Below are positions 584-18,993 of a stretch of 18,993 nucleotides of DNA, piece after piece. Under the pieces are notes generated by a model. It was not told the DNA's origin. It did not search any database and was given only the letters and a program-made list of their open reading frames with translations. A program made the translations under genes and the position numbers. This DNA comes from a virus (lineage: Duplodnaviria; Heunggongvirae; Uroviricota; Caudoviricetes), in IMG/VR virus record IMGVR_UViG_2534681765_000010; one strand, 5' to 3'. The number at the start of each line of letters is the position of its first letter. Position 1 is the stretch's first letter.

Positions 584-588
584 TTTTC

Positions 589-622
589 TCTGCAAAACCT
601 CTGCAAAACTCTTCTGCAAAAC
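589..622. repeat. Three direct repeats of tctgcaaaac (589-598, 600-609, 613-622) between ompW stop and integrase stop
   Basis: Read directly from sequence; the position next to the integrase 3' end fits integrase arm-type or att-associated sites. Confidence 0.6.
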
Positions 623-646
623 TGGTCGTCAAATGACCAGTTTTTT
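622..646. terminator. Rho-independent terminator hairpin (ctggtc-gtcaaat-gaccag + tttttt), likely terminating ompW; overlaps the integrase stop codon
   Basis: Perfect 6-bp stem 622-627 / 635-640 followed by a T-run 641-646 on the plus strand. Confidence 0.6.
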
Positions 647-1759
647 CCACTCCTTACCACGTGCATCGTTGTAAATATCGGTCATTTTTTGATTCGAATG
701 GCCAAGCAAAATTTGGGTGTCGATCCCTTGCTCCCTGAACAAACGCTCCGACAATGATCGCTGTTCATGGAAAGAGGGTGGGGTACCATTAGCGCACCAG
801 TTGTAATCTACAGAGTCCCGCGCTTTTTTAAATGCAACTGTTAACGTTGCTGGCTTAACCATCCCGCCGCGCTTGGCTGTCCCTTTCGCATGATGGTGGT
901 GCAATAGCCACGGACTAAGAACGCAATCGCGACAGGATGACGCCACATCATCCAGGGTGAGATTTAATTTATTGCAACGCAGAGCAAGAGGGATGGCAAT
1001 CCGGGTTCCTGTTTTTTGCTGTTCGACATGAAGATAACCATCCCGGATATCCGAAAATTGCATTTTGCAAATATCTGAAAGGCGCTGGCCTGTCATCAGT
1101 GCCAGCAGCATGCCGCGCTGTAAAAAGTAACCATCCTTTTCCGCTGCGTTATAAATCATCATCCACTCATCAAAAGTCAGTCGCTGCCTTGATATCCGCA
1201 CCTGCGGTTTTTTTGCCGATTCTGCAGGGTTAAAGCCTGGCGGAACATCGCCTGTTTGCTGGGCTTCCCGGAAAACATCGATCAGTACCTTCCTGAAAAT
1301 TTGTCCCATTCTGTTATGTCCTCTGGCCTTGTACTCTTCCAGCACCGATACCACATCTTTTACGGTTATGGCATCTAACGGTCTGGTGCCAAAACGTTCA
1401 TCAAATACCCTGAGAGGGGCCGCTTTTTGTTTCAGCGTGTTGAGTTTGATCTCTCCGTTTTCATATCTTTCCTGTTGAATTTTTCTGTAATTATTCAGAA
1501 AAATGGAAACGGTTGATGAACCGCCGGTATCATTAATAATTTTCTCCTGCAGACTGAGCATTTGTTTCATTTGCTGCCTGGCAAGACGGCTGTTCGCTTC
1601 TGCTGCAATAGTTTCTGCCAGTTTCTGGTCAATACTGCCGAGACCGTGATTTTTGCCTGTTATGGGATGCCTGTAACGCCAGTAAACTTTGTTATTTCTT
1701 TTGTCAAAATACGGAGATAATCCCGGAACATCAGTTTTATATTTTCGCGGGCGCGCCAT
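629..1759 (-). CDS. int: Phage integrase, tyrosine recombinase family
   Basis: 376-aa ORF; R-box-like TGQRLSDI and C-terminal LLGHSNQKMTDIYND with the catalytic Tyr; sits at the prophage end next to the att-like region and overlaps the xis start. Confidence 0.9.
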   Translation of the reverse strand: MARPRKYKTDVPGLSPYFDKRNNKVYWRYRHPITGKNHGLGSIDQKLAETIAAEANSRLARQQMKQMLSLQEKIINDTGGSSTVSIFLNNYRKIQQERYENGEIKLNTLKQKAAPLRVFDERFGTRPLDAITVKDVVSVLEEYKARGHNRMGQIFRKVLIDVFREAQQTGDVPPGFNPAESAKKPQVRISRQRLTFDEWMMIYNAAEKDGYFLQRGMLLALMTGQRLSDICKMQFSDIRDGYLHVEQQKTGTRIAIPLALRCNKLNLTLDDVASSCRDCVLSPWLLHHHHAKGTAKRGGMVKPATLTVAFKKARDSVDYNWCANGTPPSFHEQRSLSERLFREQGIDTQILLGHSNQKMTDIYNDARGKEWKKLVI

Positions 1760-2049: not shown

Positions 2050-2829
2050 TTAAAAATCAGCCTGACTCGGGATCAGTTTTTGCCAGATAGCTGAAACGTA
2101 TTTTGCCTGGTAACGGGCGTCATCAAGTGCATTATGGCGCTCACCTTCGAATGGAATAGCCGTTCTGGCATCGAAGCCTATGGCTTTCCCCAGCTCAACG
2201 ATTGTGCGTACATCGCGATCGTTGTAGTAACGCCACGGGCAGGGGATCCCCTGCCGTTCGTATGAACGGCGCAAAATCGTGTTGTCGAAGTTGGCTCCAT
2301 TTCCCCAGACCTGAACAAAAAATTCACCGGAGTTTTCGTCGATAAATTCCCGCAATTGTAACAGTGCATCATCTAACGGGATTTCATCGGTCATAATGGC
2401 AGATTGCGCTTCGCGTGATTGCTTAAGCCACCATTTAATGGTGTCCCGATCAATGACTCCGCCAGCAGTTTCCAGATCGATAGTCTTACTAAATTCCGGT
2501 CCCATATCTCCGGTTTGCGGATCGAAAAATATTGCACCTATTGAGATAATCGGGGCATCGGGATTTTTTCCCATGGTTTCAAGGTCGATCATCAGATGAA
2601 TCCCCGCTCTGCTGGTGGATGTGAGATTATGATGACCGTTTGCCTTAATTAAGGGATCTGACGCCTCGCCAGTTTCACTATCGCTGGCATGATGCTGATT
2701 GCCGCCAGTGTTCTCCTTGTGCTGATGCGCAGTGCCTTCCATTTCCTCCGGATCATTTTCCTGAACTTCAGGCTGATTCTCTCCATCGAATATTTCCTGG
2801 TATGTTGCGTCCCCATCACCGCACCACAA
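2050..2829 (-). CDS. Protein with C-terminal DEDD-type 3'-5' exonuclease-like domain; acidic low-complexity N-terminus, possibly frameshifted from the upstream ORF
   Basis: 259-aa ORF with TTG start; motifs [11 protein letters not shown] ... VWGNGANFD ... [10 protein letters not shown] resemble the three Exo motifs of DnaQ-like exonucleases. Confidence 0.55.
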
Positions 2830-3547
2830 TCAGGGCAGTTGCCGCCACCGCTCTGACCGCAGGCGGTGCAGATCTTTTCCGGTTCCTGTTGCCTACTGGT
2901 TCAGGTTGTTTCGTTTCTGGCTCGTTTTGTTGCGTATTTGGGCTGTTTTGTTCCGCTTTCTGGTCGTTCTGTTCCGTTTCTTGCTGGTTCTGGTTCACAG
3001 AATCGCGGGTTTCAATCCCCTTCACCCATTTCGGATCATTCGGGTCGCTAATCCCTTCAATAAATTCACCACGTGATGCAGCAAGCAACTTATCGGCGTC
3101 AGGCTGGCTGATATTGGCTGCCTGCATAATTTTGTTTACTTCGTCAGCGGTAACTTTTACCGGTTCTGGCTGTGCGGTCGTGTCAGATGCACCAGTATTT
3201 TGTTGTGAACCTGAGCATGTACTGTTTTTGCGGGCGAAATATTCTTCTTTCGTGATTTCAGTAGCCCCGGCAGCCAGCGCCTTATCCAGACCAGAAAGTT
3301 TGTTTGCGCGACCGTATTTTTCGCCATCCTTGTCGGTGAAGAGGAAGTAGAACGGCCCCTCACGCTCTACAGATGGTTCGACTTCCACTTTGCATTCGGT
3401 TTTTTCGTTGTCCGGAATTGCCGTTTCCACTGCATCAGTTTCTGGTACTGGCGACGAGAGAGTATCAGTTGCGCTCTGATTTGTTCCTTCATCTTCAAAC
3501 ACGCCCTTTGTAGTCAGGTATTCAGTAATGTATTTGTTCAGTGCCAC
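2816..3547 (-). CDS. Hypothetical early-left protein, Gln/Glu-rich C-terminus; C-terminal end probably out of frame
   Basis: 243-aa ORF with GTG start; overlaps the downstream exonuclease-domain ORF by 14 nt; a third frame in the overlap zone encodes a zinc-ribbon-like [17 protein letters not shown]. Confidence 0.45.
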
Positions 3548-5140: not shown

Positions 5141-5538
5141 ACTTTAAAAAGGGCAGCAGAGCAGTCACGGAGTAAAACTGATACCACCAAACGTCACCAG
5201 AAAATTGATAACAGAGGGCGTTGCAGCGGGGTTGTCACTTAAGCGTATGGTCAACCTGGCAACCCGGTGTCTCAATGGGGGAGGAATAACCCCGCCATAC
5301 TTACCGCCGCGCCATTTCGCGGAGTGCCACAACCGGAAGCGCACGGTCGAATTAAATTTAACGACACCGTACAGTGAGACGAACTTCGCCGTGCGCTTTC
5401 GCGTTATGCCCTGGCTTTTCAGGGATATATCCTTTCAGTAAACTGTCAGTACCGGATTCTTATCCGTGTCCGGCGCACGACCACACGTGGCAGCGTGTTG
5501 GTCTCCATTTTTAACCCAGAACCTCAATGGAGGATAAA

Positions 5539-6843: not shown

Positions 6844-7482
6844 TTAAATATCTTGTTGAATTTTAAAGCATACGCCCAATATGCAAGATAGATCATCCAG
6901 CATAATTGAAGGGTAGCGAGGATTCGTGGGGACTAAAAGAATATCCGGCCCTTCTATCTCCAGTTTACGAATGACAGGTGTTGTGGTCCCTTTGGGTAAG
7001 GCAAGGACAATATTTCCTGGTTGTACGGTTCGATCGGGATCAACAAAAACTGTTGAACCATTTGGGATGGAAACTCCCCCACCAGATGTTGACATACTGT
7101 CACTCTCTAGAACAACTGCAAAGGTATTGGCCGGGATTTCTCCGACAAGCTGCACACAAGAGGTTATTGAGGAATTTTTCATATAATCACTCCAGCTTGC
7201 TGCCTGCTGAAGTGATAGTAGCGGAACCGTTTTTATCGGCGGTAAAGATAGATCAAGCGAATCACCTGTATTTAACTCTCCTCCATTAAGAAGCCAATTT
7301 TCGTTTACTTTCAATATCTTTGCCAGTGAACTTATGTAACGCGAGGACGGCGCTCCTCCACCGTTCATCCATTGACTTACGGAGCCTTTTGATGCGCCAG
7401 TGGCATTGACAAGGTCTTTGCCTTTCAGGTTTAGCGCATGCATACGTTGGGTTATGCGTTCAGATATTGTTTGCTTGCTCAT
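6844..7482 (-). CDS. cI: CI-like prophage repressor (N-terminal HTH, C-terminal LexA/S24-like autocleavage domain)
   Basis: 212 aa; N-terminal LNLKGKDLVNATGASKGSVSQWMNG helix-turn-helix; C-terminal Ser (VLESDSMS) and Lys (VIRKLE) consistent with an S24 Ser-Lys dyad; divergent from the Cro-like gene across an operator-like intergenic region. Confidence 0.85.
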   Translation of the reverse strand: MSKQTISERITQRMHALNLKGKDLVNATGASKGSVSQWMNGGGAPSSRYISSLAKILKVNENWLLNGGELNTGDSLDLSLPPIKTVPLLSLQQAASWSDYMKNSSITSCVQLVGEIPANTFAVVLESDSMSTSGGGVSIPNGSTVFVDPDRTVQPGNIVLALPKGTTTPVIRKLEIEGPDILLVPTNPRYPSIMLDDLSCILGVCFKIQQDI

Positions 7483-7544
7483 GTTTTGATTTTAAAACAC
7501 AGATGGTTTTGTTTCTTGACTTTCTTTGGTTTTGATTATTAAAC
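7483..7544. promoter_or_regulatory. Immunity-region operator/promoter: two 16-bp sites gttttgattttaaaac (7483-7498) and gttttgattattaaac (7529-7544) with a ttgact -35-like hexamer at 7516-7521
   Basis: Repeated partially palindromic sites between divergent repressor and Cro-like genes, read directly. Confidence 0.5.
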
Positions 7545-7573
7545 TTTTGGCGTTCAGTTTTATGGAGCGACTC

Positions 7574-7804
7574 ATGAAAAAATCAGAAGTATTAGGCTAT
7601 TTTGGCGGAGTTGTTAAAACAGCCGCAGTTCTAGGAACGTCAAAAACCACAGTCAGCATGTGGGGGGAAGAGGTTCCGTGGAAATGGGCGTTGCTAATTC
7701 AGGCAGTCACTGCCGGGGCGCTCAAATATGAGTTACACATACCGACGGTTGTCATTCCCGGTTCTGATCATAATCCGCCTTCTAACCAAGGGGGGGATTC
7801 ATGA
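7574..7804 (+). CDS. Cro-like / YdaS-family HTH protein
   Basis: ATG 7574 with ggag RBS; MKKSEVLGYFGGVVKTAAVLGTSKTTVSMW... HTH; divergent from the repressor; stop overlaps the next start (ATGA). Confidence 0.7.
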   Translation: MKKSEVLGYFGGVVKTAAVLGTSKTTVSMWGEEVPWKWALLIQAVTAGALKYELHIPTVVIPGSDHNPPSNQGGDS

Positions 7805-8226
7805 AAATCAAGCATGAACACATCCGCATGGCGATGAATGCCTGGGCGCGTCCTGATGGCGAAAAAGTTCCAGCAGCTGGAATAACCCAGGCTTATTTTG
7901 AGTTGGGTATGACGTTCCCAGAACTGTATGACGACAGCCATCCGGAAGCCCTGGCTCGCAATACCCAGAAAATTTTCCGCTGGATAGAGAAAGACACCCC
8001 TGATGCAGTTGAAAAAATTCAGGCGTTGTTACCAGCGATCGAAAAGGCAATGCCACCTTTGCTGGTGGCCAGAATGCGCAGCCACAGTTCAGCTTATTTT
8101 CGGGAGCTGGTGGAGACGCGGGAGCGACTGGTGAGAGACGCTGATGATTTTGTCGCAGTGGCAATCGCCGGTTTCAATCAGATGAACCGTGGTGGCCCGG
8201 CAGGAAATGCTGTGGCAGTGCATTGA
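7801..8226 (+). CDS. YdaT-like (CII-analogue) regulatory protein
   Basis: 141 aa beginning MKIKHEHI, as I recall for Rac prophage YdaT; immediately follows the Cro-like gene. Confidence 0.65.
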   Translation: MKIKHEHIRMAMNAWARPDGEKVPAAGITQAYFELGMTFPELYDDSHPEALARNTQKIFRWIEKDTPDAVEKIQALLPAIEKAMPPLLVARMRSHSSAYFRELVETRERLVRDADDFVAVAIAGFNQMNRGGPAGNAVAVH

Positions 8227-8297: not shown

Positions 8298-9368
8298 ATG
8301 GCTAACGCCTGGCTCAGATTATGGCATGACATGCCAAATGACCCTAAGTGGCGAACAATTGCCAGGGTGTCAGGGCAGTCAATTGCAACAGTGATGGCAG
8401 TGTATATCCACCTCCTGGTGAGCGCGTCACGAAATGTCACGCGAGGTCACATTGATGTCACGACAGAAGATTTGGCAAGTGCGCTCGACGTGACAGAAGA
8501 GGTAATTGATTCAATTTTGCAGACGATGCAGGGGCGGGTACTTGATGGTGATTTAATCACTGGATGGGAAAAACGCCAGGTGCTTAAAGAGGACAACGGC
8601 AATATTTCGCAAACCGCAAAATCTCCTGCAGAGCGCAAGAGGGCGCAGCGAGAGAGGGAAAGAAAGCGGGAACAAAATGGCGATTGTCACGGCGCGTCAC
8701 GAAATGTCACGCACATGTCACGACGAGTCACGACAGATAAAGATACAGATAAAGATACAGATCAAGAAGATCAAAACACTATGGTCCATGGCGTAAAAAA
8801 CGCCACGAACCAGGCAGGGGATGTTCAGACCGTCAATCTTGGTCAGCCAGCAGGCACGACACCGGAAGCCGATTCAGCGTATGCGCTGAAAGCCGATTCG
8901 GGCGCTGTGCAGCAGGTGATGACCGCAAGGCCGGAGCAATCACACCAACTGCAGCAGCCTGAAGCCGATTCCGCCATTCAGCGGGAAGCCGATCGGGTAG
9001 TCACGGAAAACACCGGGCAGCCTGTGAGACGAGTGGATTATCCGGATGTGTTCGAACAGGTCTGGCGGGAATACCCGTTGCGTGCTGGGGCAAACCCGAA
9101 GAAATCCGCTTTCAGTGCCTGGAAGGCCAGATTACGCGAGGGGGTGTCACCAGAGGCCATGCTGGATGGCGTGAGGCGTTACGCAAGATACCTTGCGGCT
9201 ACCGGGAAAACGGGAACGGAATTTGTTCAGCGAGCGACGACGTTTTTTGGACCGGACCGGAATTTTGAAAACCCCTGGCTGCTCCCGGTAAGCGGCACGA
9301 ACAACCAGCGTTGTGTGAATCATATTTCTGAACCGGATACCGAAATTCCACCGGGCTTCAGGGGGTAA
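8298..9368 (+). CDS. Replication initiator protein (lambda O-like in function) with origin-like iterons inside the gene
   Basis: 357 codons from ATG 8298 (gaggtgag RBS; track start is an upstream GTG at 8292); position after cro/cII-like genes; two clusters of 10-bp-phased gtcac repeats plus an AT-rich tandem repeat within the ORF. Confidence 0.65.
   Translation: MANAWLRLWHDMPNDPKWRTIARVSGQSIATVMAVYIHLLVSASRNVTRGHIDVTTEDLASALDVTEEVIDSILQTMQGRVLDGDLITGWEKRQVLKEDNGNISQTAKSPAERKRAQRERERKREQNGDCHGASRNVTHMSRRVTTDKDTDKDTDQEDQNTMVHGVKNATNQAGDVQTVNLGQPAGTTPEADSAYALKADSGAVQQVMTARPEQSHQLQQPEADSAIQREADRVVTENTGQPVRRVDYPDVFEQVWREYPLRAGANPKKSAFSAWKARLREGVSPEAMLDGVRRYARYLAATGKTGTEFVQRATTFFGPDRNFENPWLLPVSGTNNQRCVNHISEPDTEIPPGFRG
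8422..8461. repeat. Iteron cluster 1: four gtcac motifs phased at 10-11 bp (8426, 8436, 8446, 8457)
   Basis: Read directly; contains the 21-bp unit gcgcgtcacgaaatgtcacgc (8422-8442), repeated exactly at 8692-8712. Confidence 0.65.
8686..8759. repeat. Iteron cluster 2: five gtcac motifs phased at 10-11 bp (8686-8731), then 12-bp AT-rich tandem repeat gataaagataca x2 (8736-8759)
   Basis: Read directly; iterons followed by an AT-rich tract is the classic layout of a lambdoid ori inside the initiator gene. Confidence 0.65.
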
Positions 9369-9408: not shown

Positions 9409-9831
9409 GTGGCAAAAGTTTTTACACAAGAAGAGCGGGAAAAAATTAAAGGGCAGGTTGTTGAACTCGTACGCCAGAGTGGGCGCGAGACGTTACGACA
9501 ACTGGAAACTAAAACTGGGGCAACAAGATATCTGATGAGCGTTCTGGCCAGAGAGCTGGTTGCCAGTGGCGATGTATACAACTCTGGTTACGGGTTATTC
9601 CCGTCTGAACAGGCGCGTAAGGACTGGCAAAATGCCCGTAAAAAGCTCTCAAGGGCAAAGCTGAAGAAACCATCTGCGGTTGATCCGGACCTTATCTGGT
9701 CATTACCTGACGGAGAAATACGTCGCTACGACAGGCGTCAGAACATAATCTGTCGCGAGTGCCGGAAGAGTGAGGTTATGCAGCGAGTGCTGGCGTTTTA
9801 TCAGGGTAATTTTCAGGAGGTGATGGCGTGA
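9409..9831 (+). CDS. Hypothetical protein (140 aa), possible DNA-binding / replication accessory
   Basis: GTG start 9409 preceded by the 16-bp RBS module ggtaattttcaggagg; sits between the initiator gene and the DUF4406-like gene. Confidence 0.5.
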   Translation: MAKVFTQEEREKIKGQVVELVRQSGRETLRQLETKTGATRYLMSVLARELVASGDVYNSGYGLFPSEQARKDWQNARKKLSRAKLKKPSAVDPDLIWSLPDGEIRRYDRRQNIICRECRKSEVMQRVLAFYQGNFQEVMA

Positions 9832-10395: not shown

Positions 10396-10509
10396 TCCAA
10401 ATCTGAATAATTAAATCCAGCACTGTAAATAAAATTTAATCCTTAACCGGAGGGATTTCTGCACCCTCAGAACATCAGGAGGCCGCCCGAAAGGGCGGTG
10501 GAGATAATA

Positions 10510-11034
10510 ATGGAAATAACTAAAGAACGATTATTGGAAATAGCAAATCTTAGTGAAAGGGCATTAAGTGATGGGAGGATTATTTCTCCTGATGCTTATG
10601 AATCAGTTACAAGTATAGAAATAATAACGATGGCCAGGATGCTTCTTGGTTGCCTCAAAAAAGAATATAAAAAAAAGGTGGATAGCAATGCTAATATATA
10701 TGATATTTTGGACAGTTGGGGGGCTTGGGCTGCAGCTGGAAATAGTTCTATCAACTGGCAGCAAGTGGCTGATAAATATAAAGATGTAGTACCTCATGGT
10801 AAGAAATTACGCCGTCAGTGTGGCAACGATGAAGGTCGTATGATTGATACCTGCATGTTGAAGCTTAAACAATATAGAATAGATGACTATGAGTTAATTA
10901 TCGCTCATTTTGTTATAGGTATATCTTTGCGTACAATAGCACGAAGGTACAAATGTTCAGATGGAACAATAAGAAAGAATATACAACTTACAATGGGAGT
11001 ATTGTTAGGATTGTCTTTTTATGTGCAATTATAG
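10510..11034 (+). CDS. Antiterminator Q-like protein (Q933-type fold suspected) with N-terminal extension; first gene of the AT-rich island
   Basis: ATG 10510 with ggag RBS; motifs LDSWGAWAAAG, RRQCGNDEGRMIDTCMLKLK and CSDGTIRKNIQ resemble the Stx-phage Q family as I recall it; AT-rich codon usage. Confidence 0.45.
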   Translation: MEITKERLLEIANLSERALSDGRIISPDAYESVTSIEIITMARMLLGCLKKEYKKKVDSNANIYDILDSWGAWAAAGNSSINWQQVADKYKDVVPHGKKLRRQCGNDEGRMIDTCMLKLKQYRIDDYELIIAHFVIGISLRTIARRYKCSDGTIRKNIQLTMGVLLGLSFYVQL

Positions 11035-12449: not shown

Positions 12450-12897
12450 TGCAAAAATTTCCTGTAAAAAATAATTACATACTTAAGATACTACAAAGAA
12501 TAATGCGTACGCAAAATTTTTTGTTGAGTAGAATATGTTCGCGGGGTATTTTTCGTTAAGATATAATTACCATGGTAACTTTTGCGTTGGTAATGCATTA
12601 TGTGGTGGAGAAAAAGAGAGAGTCTTATCTTTAAATTATCGCCAGCCTATATGACTATATGAGTAGTATTTAGATGGGAAATTGTTGAGTTATTGAAAGG
12701 AACCATAACCTTTATGTAAAATTACTGCGGGTGCTTGAGGTTATCTGTCTCAGGCATGCCACCAAAAGGCAGATAGAGAAAAGCCCCAGTTAACGTTACG
12801 CGTCCTGCAAGACGTTTAACATTAATCTGAGGCTCAATCTATGAACGGCAAATCTAGGTTAGCCTCTTACGTGCCGAAAGGCAAGGAGAAGCAGGCT

Positions 12898-13053
12898 ATG
12901 AAGCAGCAAAAGGCGATGTTAATCGCCCTGATCGTCATCTGTTTAACCGTCATAGTGACGGCACTGGTAACGAGGAAAGACCTCTGCGAGGTACGAATCC
13001 GAACCGGCCAGACGGAGGTCGCTGTCTTCACAGCTTACGAACCTGAGGAGTAA
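12898..13053 (+). CDS. hokD: Hok/Gef-family type I toxin (51 aa), HokD/RelF-like
   Basis: MKQQKAMLIALIVICLTVIVTALVTRKDLCEVRIRTGQTEVAVFTAYEPEE: single TM helix then the conserved RKxLCE..R....EVA.F.AYE Hok pattern; aaggag RBS 10 nt upstream. The track ORF start at 12841 is an in-frame extension that is probably not translated. Confidence 0.7.
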   Translation: MKQQKAMLIALIVICLTVIVTALVTRKDLCEVRIRTGQTEVAVFTAYEPEE

Positions 13054-18917: not shown

Positions 18918-18993
18918 GGCCCTTTAGCTCAGTGGTGAGAGCGAGCGACTCATAATCGCCAGGTCGCTGGTTCAAATCCAGCAAGGGCCACCA
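18918..18993 (+). tRNA. tRNA with CAU anticodon, Ile2 (lysidine)-like by resemblance to E. coli ileX/ileY; Met cannot be excluded from the anticodon alone
   Basis: 76 nt ending CCA; acceptor stem ggccctt/aagggcc; D-arm gctc...gagc; anticodon loop ctCATaa; T-arm gctgg-ttcaaat-ccagc. Folded by eye. Confidence 0.85.

Follow-up and report, generated by a model that had tools for sequence, protein, structure and literature searches.

Positions 8422–8812 of an 18,993-bp stretch of viral DNA (Caudoviricetes; IMG/VR record IMGVR_UViG_2534681765_000010), further referred to as the window, most likely constitute the vegetative replication origin of a lambdoid E. coli prophage, placed inside the gene of its own initiator. 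The assignment is made from sequence. The region contains two arrays of short direct repeats (iterons) with the core TGTCACG and, after the second array, an A-rich tract. Comparison of related initiator genes shows that both the cores and the tract are selected as DNA across gamma- and betaproteobacterial relatives. The coordinates of all features are collected in Table 1.

Iteron arrays in the initiator gene

The repeated unit is (T)GTCACG followed by 3–4 variable bases. The starts of GTCAC are at positions 8426, 8436, 8446 and 8457 in array 1 and at 8686, 8696, 8706, 8717 and 8727 in array 2, in agreement with the initial annotation, which described two clusters phased at 10–11 bp inside the initiator open reading frame. 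Together the arrays account for nine of the 22 GTCAC occurrences counted in the window. The 21-mer GCGCGTCACGAAATGTCACGC, also reported there as common to both clusters, was located at 8422 and 8692. It is present in exactly two copies, offset by 270 bp and sharing a reading frame, both encoding ASRNVT; its length equals seven codons and two helical turns. Compared to most relatives, array 2 of the window contains an extra 21 bp (seven amino acids, two cores).

Chance expectation for the phased pair GTCACN5GTCAC was estimated from 200 dinucleotide shuffles. The pair was observed five times in the window, each time within the arrays, with 0.01 occurrences expected, and no shuffle gave five. Hence the repeat pattern is not due to chance. 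No second distant origin of the oriR kind was seen in the window by motif counting.

Selection on the cores at the DNA level

The N-terminal domain of the encoded protein is 60–75% identical in Pseudomonas, Bordetella, Achromobacter, Chromobacterium, Azotobacter, Klebsiella and others. We compared the positions of the cores in 39 genomic loci of relatives. GTCAC occupies identical gene offsets (128, 138, 148 and 159) in about 24 of the 39 loci, with host GC-content ranging from 34 to 69%. These loci also have three to five copies near offsets 386–430, and the inverted copy (GTGAC) is retained at gene offset 192 in most relatives of the GTCAC type.

The cores are translated in all three frames, yielding ASR, NVT, GH, CH and MSR. 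For example, GCG-TCA-CGA is read as A-S-R, GTC-ACG as V-T, GGT-CAC as G-H and TGT-CAC as C-H. Synonymous sites were tested on an ungapped codon alignment of 20 loci from hosts with the GC-content of 34–69%. Among the codons lying within cores, V47 (GTC), G50 (GGT), H51 (CAC) and V54 (GTC) are each the same in 20 of 20 loci, S44 (TCA) in 19 and A43 (GCG) in 18; the flanking T48 and T55 are encoded by ACG in all 20. The mean third-position entropy of the 41 other conserved degenerate codons is 1.30 bits (Mann–Whitney p = 1.6e-4 versus the core sites). Since third positions of the cores are practically invariant while other synonymous sites are saturated, the codon comparison confirms that the constraint acts on DNA and not on the protein. 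The same had been proposed in the initial annotation for the window alone, and it now holds with a core read in three frames and synonymous sites frozen in 20 distant relatives.

A-rich tract and palindrome downstream of array 2

An AT-rich 12-bp tandem repeat had been noticed after the second cluster, and Tandem Repeats Finder detects it at 8733–8767 (unit ACAGATAAAGAT, 2.9 copies, translated as TDKDTDKDTD). The least stable 40-bp duplex of the gene lies at 8736–8776, with −44.7 kcal/mol versus the window mean of −55.1, and it ranks in the least stable 1.1% of the whole window. In 64 of the 66 iteron-bearing genes of the family (see the next section) a tract opening with AGATA... begins 7–18 nt after the last iteron. 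Averaged over the family, the post-iteron tract is 70% A+T, and its coding strand contains 55% A and 14% T.

The same A-rich DNA motif is read in three frames, as DKDKD in 55 genes, QIREE in five and RLDKR in four. Codon usage was analyzed in eight loci from hosts with the GC-content of 57–69%. In the twelve codons after the last core, the GAT:GAC ratio is 29:1 versus 68:109 elsewhere in the gene (p = 4e-10), and the AAA:AAG ratio is 29:3 versus 25:77 (p = 2e-11). Because the motif is read in three frames and AT-favouring codons are used there in high-GC hosts, these alignments indicate that the tract is retained by selection at the DNA level. Given its conservation in 64 of 66 genes, the AT-favouring codons and the minimum of duplex stability, it looks like a DNA unwinding element.

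The tract is directly followed by an imperfect 31-bp palindrome. Family-wide, the hairpin potential at this position is weakly enriched (6.3 versus 5.9 paired bases, p = 0.006), and the role of the palindrome as a conserved part of the origin is uncertain. A likeness between the oriC 13-mer GATCTnTTnTTTT and the bottom strand of the tract was considered and dropped, as seven matches against 9.3 expected correspond to the chance level. In many relatives (for example, loci L006, L009, L010, L012, L013, L024 and L027) the motif CCCCC(C)-N4-6-CCCCC(C) recurs 40–70 nt after the last iteron, just past the A-rich tract; the window does not contain it. The motif is often followed by GGGG(G), forming a C/G hairpin, and encodes PPLxPPxG; it may be a feature of either DNA or protein.

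Core types and co-variation of the two arrays

The first scan of IMG/VR, with an alignment query, yielded only near-identical copies from E. coli. The diversity comes from re-scans of the same database seeded with divergent members, which provided 72 non-redundant family genes. In 66 of them the same core is the top hexamer shared by both arrays: GTCAC(G) in 37 genes, GAACG(C) in 21 and GTAAC(G) in eight. Array 2 of the relatives contains 2–9 copies, spaced by 10 bp (138 cases) or 11 bp (30 cases). The comparison with related initiator genes, one of the checks put forward in the initial annotation, thus finds the layout of iterons and AT-rich tract conserved across the family. The distinct initiator specificity suggested there is supported by the three core variants, each shared by both arrays of a gene.

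The distribution of GTAACG covers three separate lineages, the closest relatives of which have GTCACG or GAACGC. Two of them stand beside GTCACG relatives (L024/L027/L202 next to L028, and L034 next to L015/L017), and one, L036/L149-151, beside GAACGC relatives. Only protein positions outside the iteron-encoded codons were used in this comparison. Since GTAACG is scattered over three lineages, the core has switched jointly in both arrays at least three times. Between L027/L024/L202 and L028 the switch is largely a concerted synonymous one, GTA-ACG versus GTC-ACG, both encoding Val-Thr.

Outside the iteron codons, the core type is best tracked by residues 114, 117, 120 and 121, all located in a basic helix of the protein; residue 117 is Q, W or Y/F. 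We did not assign specificity to these four residues, as the signal is a correlation confounded by phylogeny.

Several family members have an unusual structure. Genes L030, L033, L038 and L153, from low-GC hosts of the Entomomonas/Ventosimonas type, keep the GATAAAGATAAAG tract, preceded by degenerate AAACG/GAAC motifs, and have no shared core at the position of array 1. In L037 and L040 (Serratia, Pantoea) there is an insertion after the winged helix, roughly at codons 100–190, and there are no recognisable iterons; by eye, the insertion resembles a GIY-YIG-type nuclease motif (YVYYV...GIS.NPW.R). L206, an E. coli-type gene from IMG/VR, stops just past array 2 due to a frameshift relative to its relatives; its cores and A-rich tract are all retained, and it may be a pseudogene with intact DNA elements.

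The initiator protein and its genomic context

In other records the gene is labelled 'phage replisome organizer', 'replication initiation protein' or 'hypothetical protein'. The protein matches phrog_3729 'replication initiation protein' (E 1.5e-255) and, more weakly, the PHROG families 'replisome organizer' and 'DnaD-like helicase loader'. A near-identical gene, TRITO_36 (99.6% identity), is present in Escherichia phage Tritos, in whose record no origin is annotated there. No Pfam family is matched above the threshold. Phage_rep_org_N (PF09681) aligns over its full length but below it (residues 5–122 to model positions 1–118, 13.4 bits versus the cut-off of 23.3), and so does TIGR01714.

AlphaFold confidently predicts N-terminal helices at residues 2–14, 16–25, 29–45, 56–63 and 67–77, a loop at 46–55 and a beta-hairpin wing at 78–87, where helices 56–63 and 67–77 form the helix-turn-helix. 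The modelled fold is most like the N-terminal domain of DnaD (DnaD-NTD); neither sequence nor profile searches found a solved relative of it in PDB. The basic helix, positioned between the winged helix and array 2, is a candidate for DNA contact or for specificity. Residues 128–224 form a disordered linker with predicted local distance difference test (pLDDT) scores below 50, and the only conserved residues there are those encoded by iterons. According to the models, the iterons are thus located in segments where the protein tolerates constraint, namely the surface loop, the turn of the helix-turn-helix and the disordered linker.

Genes for CI, Cro, a YdaT/CII-like protein, the initiator, a DUF977/Ren-like protein and Q follow in this order, and the locus is the early rightward operon of a lambdoid prophage. 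The modelled protein fits an initiator because of its DnaD-NTD-like winged helix, the matching PHROG families and the position in the early operon. The genes following it in relatives encode lambda-P-like proteins (PF06992; L005, L006, L028), a DnaC/IstB-like protein (L027) or other proteins; in L017 the next gene is, by eye, DnaB-like. The protein thus holds the 'O' position of O-P-type modules.

The segment 8890–9368, in the C-terminal half, is 82% identical to the initiator gene of the Shiga toxin (Stx) phage 75/02 of Shigella and of related Stx phages. These initiators have an unrelated N-terminal domain, no GTCAC arrays and a DnaC-like gene downstream. Because the C-terminal half is shared while the N-terminal domains are unrelated, the comparison of the two genes shows that the origin-binding and C-terminal halves are exchanged as separate modules. 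An initiator of the 75/02 type (L002, 1894–2982) has a purine-rich tract of its own, CAAGAACAAGAACAGGAACAG..., encoding QEQEQEQEQE, upstream of the shared C-terminal half.

The last 22–25 residues of the window protein (…VNHISEPDTEIPPGFRG) match the C-terminus of DnaT (chains 6aep, 2ru8 and 9zbt, E 0.016–0.06). The matching tail SGTNNQRCVNHISEPDTEIPPGFRG (residues 332–356, positions 9291–9365) corresponds to DnaT of E. coli and Salmonella and also to NF002770. The likeness is confined to these terminal residues: the helical C-terminal domain of the window protein gives no Pfam match to the DnaT DNA-binding domain PF17948, which is present in full in many family members. Family members whose C-terminal domains otherwise differ carry the same DnaT-like tail. 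In the E. coli preprimosome, a filament of the DnaT C-terminal domain on single-stranded DNA marks the helicase-loading site (PMC13377028). By analogy, the tail suggests a route by which a phage lacking a loader could recruit DnaB-DnaC, and it may engage the host helicase-loading or restart machinery.

Comparison with known origins

The initial annotation had called the arrangement a lambda ori layout with a different iteron. In phage lambda, the origin lies in the middle of gene O, between the parts encoding the DNA-binding N-terminal and the partner-binding C-terminal regions. Repeats bound by the initiator are followed by an AT-rich tract, and the iterons, imperfect inverted repeats of 19 bp, form one cluster of four to six (PMC7466680). 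The window resembles lambda in that the putative origin is wholly inside the initiator open reading frame, with an AT-rich tract flanking the iterons (8733–8780, after the core at 8727). Further, the gene follows cro and cII in the pR early operon, the C-terminal halves can be exchanged, and in several relatives the next gene is lambda-P-like. Unlike lambda, the window encodes a protein without O homology (no Phage_rep_O match in Pfam even at E <= 10), its cores are asymmetric 7-mers TGTCACG at 10–11 bp, and they form two arrays approximately 225 bp apart, one of them within the very codons of the DNA-binding domain. The place of a P-like loader beside the gene is taken by the DUF977/Ren-like gene. 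Therefore the part of the comparison concerning iterons and an AT-rich tract within an initiator gene stands, whereas O homology, 19-bp dyad iterons and a single array are not retained. In the lambda origin, the AT-rich tract is also followed by a palindrome.

In the oriL origin of phage SPP1, direct repeats, along with an AT-rich unwinding element, lie inside gene 38 and are bound by gp38 (PMC6316719). The window similarly combines direct repeats with an AT-rich element within an organiser gene, with binding presumed by analogy. Here the similarity to Phage_rep_org_N is marginal, the host is a proteobacterium, and no loader and helicase of the gp39/gp40 type adjoin the gene. ORF13 of TP901-1 and Rep of Tuc2009, both lactococcal, are cases similar to SPP1.

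Winged-helix Rep proteins (RepA, RepE, pi; RepA_N) also serve iteron plasmid replicons, where the iterons are typically 17–22 bp long, lie outside the rep gene and are usually accompanied by DnaA boxes. In contrast, the cores of the window lie inside the initiator gene with no DnaA box near. In common with iteron origins in general, there are 4 + 5 direct repeats in helical phase, and the repeat type co-varies between the arrays. The sequence thus appears to represent a known layout, that of lambda and SPP1, in a new initiator family marginally assignable to Phage_rep_org_N.

Proposed mechanism and alternative explanations

Upon derepression of the prophage, the 356-residue protein would be made from the rightward early operon. 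Its N-terminal winged helix, possibly together with the basic helix at residues 110–127, would bind the cores head-to-tail on one face of DNA. Oligomerisation of the initiator would then stress the duplex, so that the adjacent A-rich tract melts. Bridging of the arrays with looping out of the approximately 225 bp between them is possible but speculative. These binding, oligomerisation and melting steps are inferred from the analogous action of lambda O at ori-lambda and of gp38 of SPP1 at oriL. More speculatively, the C-terminal domain and its DnaT-like tail would recruit the DnaB-DnaC complex of the host or the restart primosome; helicase recruitment is conjectural because no loader gene adjoins the initiator gene in the window.

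Several points weigh against an origin at this locus. No replication, binding or unwinding experiment on the family was found in the searchable literature. There is no DnaA box (with at most one mismatch) near 8400–8800; DnaA boxes or 13-mer-like elements are common at iteron origins and not universal. No partner gene of the P, DnaC or DnaB type adjoins the initiator gene in the window, and models of replisome organisers from Pfam and TIGRFAM are reached only below the threshold. Six of the 72 genes (L030, L033, L038, L153, L037 and L040) have no recognisable shared core, hence the two-array rule is not universal. Finally, co-variation of array 1 with the protein arises partly by construction, as array 1 encodes a part of that protein.

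The arrays may bind the initiator mainly for regulation, be it autoregulation, a roadblock in the pR operon, or copy control and incompatibility by handcuffing, with unwinding occurring elsewhere. We consider this unlikely. Such a role would agree with the existence of two separated arrays, only the second of which abuts the AT-rich tract, and with the additional inverted core accompanying array 1; in E. coli genomes with up to five copies of the module, cross-talk would matter. However, DNA-level selection acts on the A-rich tract after array 2 in 64 of 66 genes, the tract coincides with the stability minimum of the gene, and a purely regulatory site is disfavoured because it would not need a selected A-rich tract. 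Plasmid iterons serve both replication and regulation; likewise, array 1 could have a regulatory role alongside origin function at array 2, and the one does not exclude the other. Recognition of the arrays by a different protein has a very low probability. TGTCA-type cores at 10–11 bp do resemble tandem sites of PhoB/OmpR-type regulators (pho boxes are tandem 7-bp repeats, CTGTCAT, with an 11-bp period). Yet the core type differs among phages of related hosts, enterobacterial loci included, which speaks against a host factor of the PhoB type. Another phage product, such as the CII/YdaT-like one, is unlikely, as the neighbours vary widely in relatives and only the initiator is always linked to the arrays. 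Packaging sites can lie within genes, but a pac site recognized by terminase is disfavoured by the position of the locus in the early replication module and not beside the terminase genes.

The remaining explanation, that the repeats are a by-product of a peptide motif (SRNVT / DVT / DKD) and have no function as DNA, is next to negligible in our estimate. It draws on the fact that both copies of the 21-mer encode ASRNVT in the same frame and that ASRNVTRGHxDVT is highly conserved in the protein alignment. On the other hand, the core is read in three frames, synonymous sites within it are invariant where others are saturated, and the VT codons switch between GTC and GTA together with the protein unchanged. 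Array 2 lies in a disordered linker, and the DNA of the A-rich tract is kept while its translation differs (DKDKD, QIREE, RLDKR). The frozen synonymous sites, the three-frame tract and its codon bias contradict a repeat maintained for the peptide only, and we rejected this explanation.

A bolder version of the origin assignment is doubtful in our view. It postulates a two-part, self-referential origin where a loader is dispensed with through mimicry of the DnaT tail or domain, so that DnaA-like initiation is accomplished by a module of restart proteins. If true, the location of array 1 in the codons of the DNA-binding domain would force joint evolution of the site and the protein, and could explain the 60–75% N-terminal identity from E. 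coli to Pseudomonas and Bordetella. New specificities would arise via one- or two-base changes of the core made together in both arrays. The protein would either polymerise as a filament along the melted A-rich strand or enter the host PriA/DnaT/DnaC restart pathway.

Distribution and implications

The module was found in 2078 of 5426 complete E. coli genomes (approximately 38%), with up to five copies each. The N-terminal domain occurs in only 25 records of the phage collection, none of them a classical model phage, and no Stx phage with the N-terminal domain of the window type is among the phage matches. RefSeq mostly labels the gene 'hypothetical protein' or 'phage replisome organizer'. The searchable literature, including reviews of replication modules, yielded no description of this origin or of iterons of the TGTCACG type. 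Papers on the 'Eru' replication types of Stx phages classify the modules and contain nothing on iterons or origins.

Many database entries for the initiator are 'partial' and located at the ends of short contigs; one cluster of 1121 members is represented by a 683-bp contig. Short-read assemblies probably break within the initiator gene, since parts of it are common to several resident prophages.

For Stx phages, a link between replication and toxin production is known (PMC7466680). Knowledge of the origin and of its specificity groups would provide a defined target for studying or blocking replication of the prophages described here. The three closely related pairs of core and initiator form a natural set for dissecting how a winged helix reads a 7-bp site. 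The gene is also a clear case of overlapping protein and DNA codes, and its frozen synonymous sites would mislead codon-based analyses of selection and gene recoding. The conceptual advance is modest, since the layout is a textbook one.

Other elements of the window

Beside the early operon, the window contains RNA genes identified by Rfam/ARAGORN and two further tandem repeats (Table 1).

Table 1. Features of the putative origin, the initiator gene and the rest of the window (positions in the window).
Feature	Position	Strand	Description
Initiator gene	8298..9368	+	356 amino acids plus stop; ATG at 8298 behind GAGGTGA Shine-Dalgarno
Winged-helix N-terminal domain, coding region	8298..8582	+	Residues 1–95
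Exact 21-bp unit, copy 1	8422..8442	+	GCGCGTCACGAAATGTCACGC; two cores
Iteron array 1	8425..8463	+	Four direct cores (cGTCACG, tGTCACG, gGTCACA, tGTCACG), spacing 10, 10, 11 bp; encodes residues 43–56, ASRNVTRGHIDVTT, the last part of helix 3 and the surface loop that precedes the helix-turn-helix (AlphaFold models)
Inverted core	8489..8495	-	CGTGACA on + strand, TGTCACG on - strand; single copy; encodes D64-V65-T66, the turn of the helix-turn-helix
Basic helix, coding region	8625..8678	+	Residues 110–127, AKSPAERKRAQRERERKRE, between winged helix and array 2 (AlphaFold models)
Iteron array 2	8685..8733	+	Five direct cores (tGTCACG, cGTCACG, tGTCACG, tGTCACG, aGTCACG), spacing 10, 10, 11, 10 bp; encodes residues 130–145, CHGASRNVTHMSRRVT, within the disordered linker
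Exact 21-bp unit, copy 2	8692..8712	+	GCGCGTCACGAAATGTCACGC
A-rich, purine-rich tract	8733..8780	+	2.9 copies of ACAGATAAAGAT followed by GATCAAGAAGATCAAAAC with two GATC sites; candidate DNA unwinding element
Imperfect 31-bp palindrome	8782..8812	.	TGGTCCATGGCG-TAAAAAA-CGCCACGAACCA, directly after the A-rich tract
C-terminal helical domain and DnaT-like tail, coding region	8970..9365	+	Residues 225–317 and 332–356
S24-type CI repressor	6844-7482	-	
P22-type Cro	7526-7804		
YdaT/CII-like gene	7801-8226		
DUF977/Ren-like gene	9409-9831		Next gene after the initiator
Antiterminator Q	10498-11034		
DicF antisense small RNA	5151-5202	-	Rfam/ARAGORN
sok antitoxin RNA	12729-12903	+	hok/sok-type module; Rfam/ARAGORN
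tRNA-Met gene	18918-18993	+	Rfam/ARAGORN; reaches the window end
21-bp x 4 tandem repeat	2906-2989		TTGTTCCGTTTCTGGCTCGTT; 74% matches; where open reading frames 2802-3350 (+) and 2816-3547 (-) overlap
11-12-bp x 3 repeat	587-623		TCTCTGCAAAAC; just below open reading frame 629-1759 (-)

DicF, sok and tRNA-Met are typical cargo of lambdoid prophages similar to Qin and Rac.

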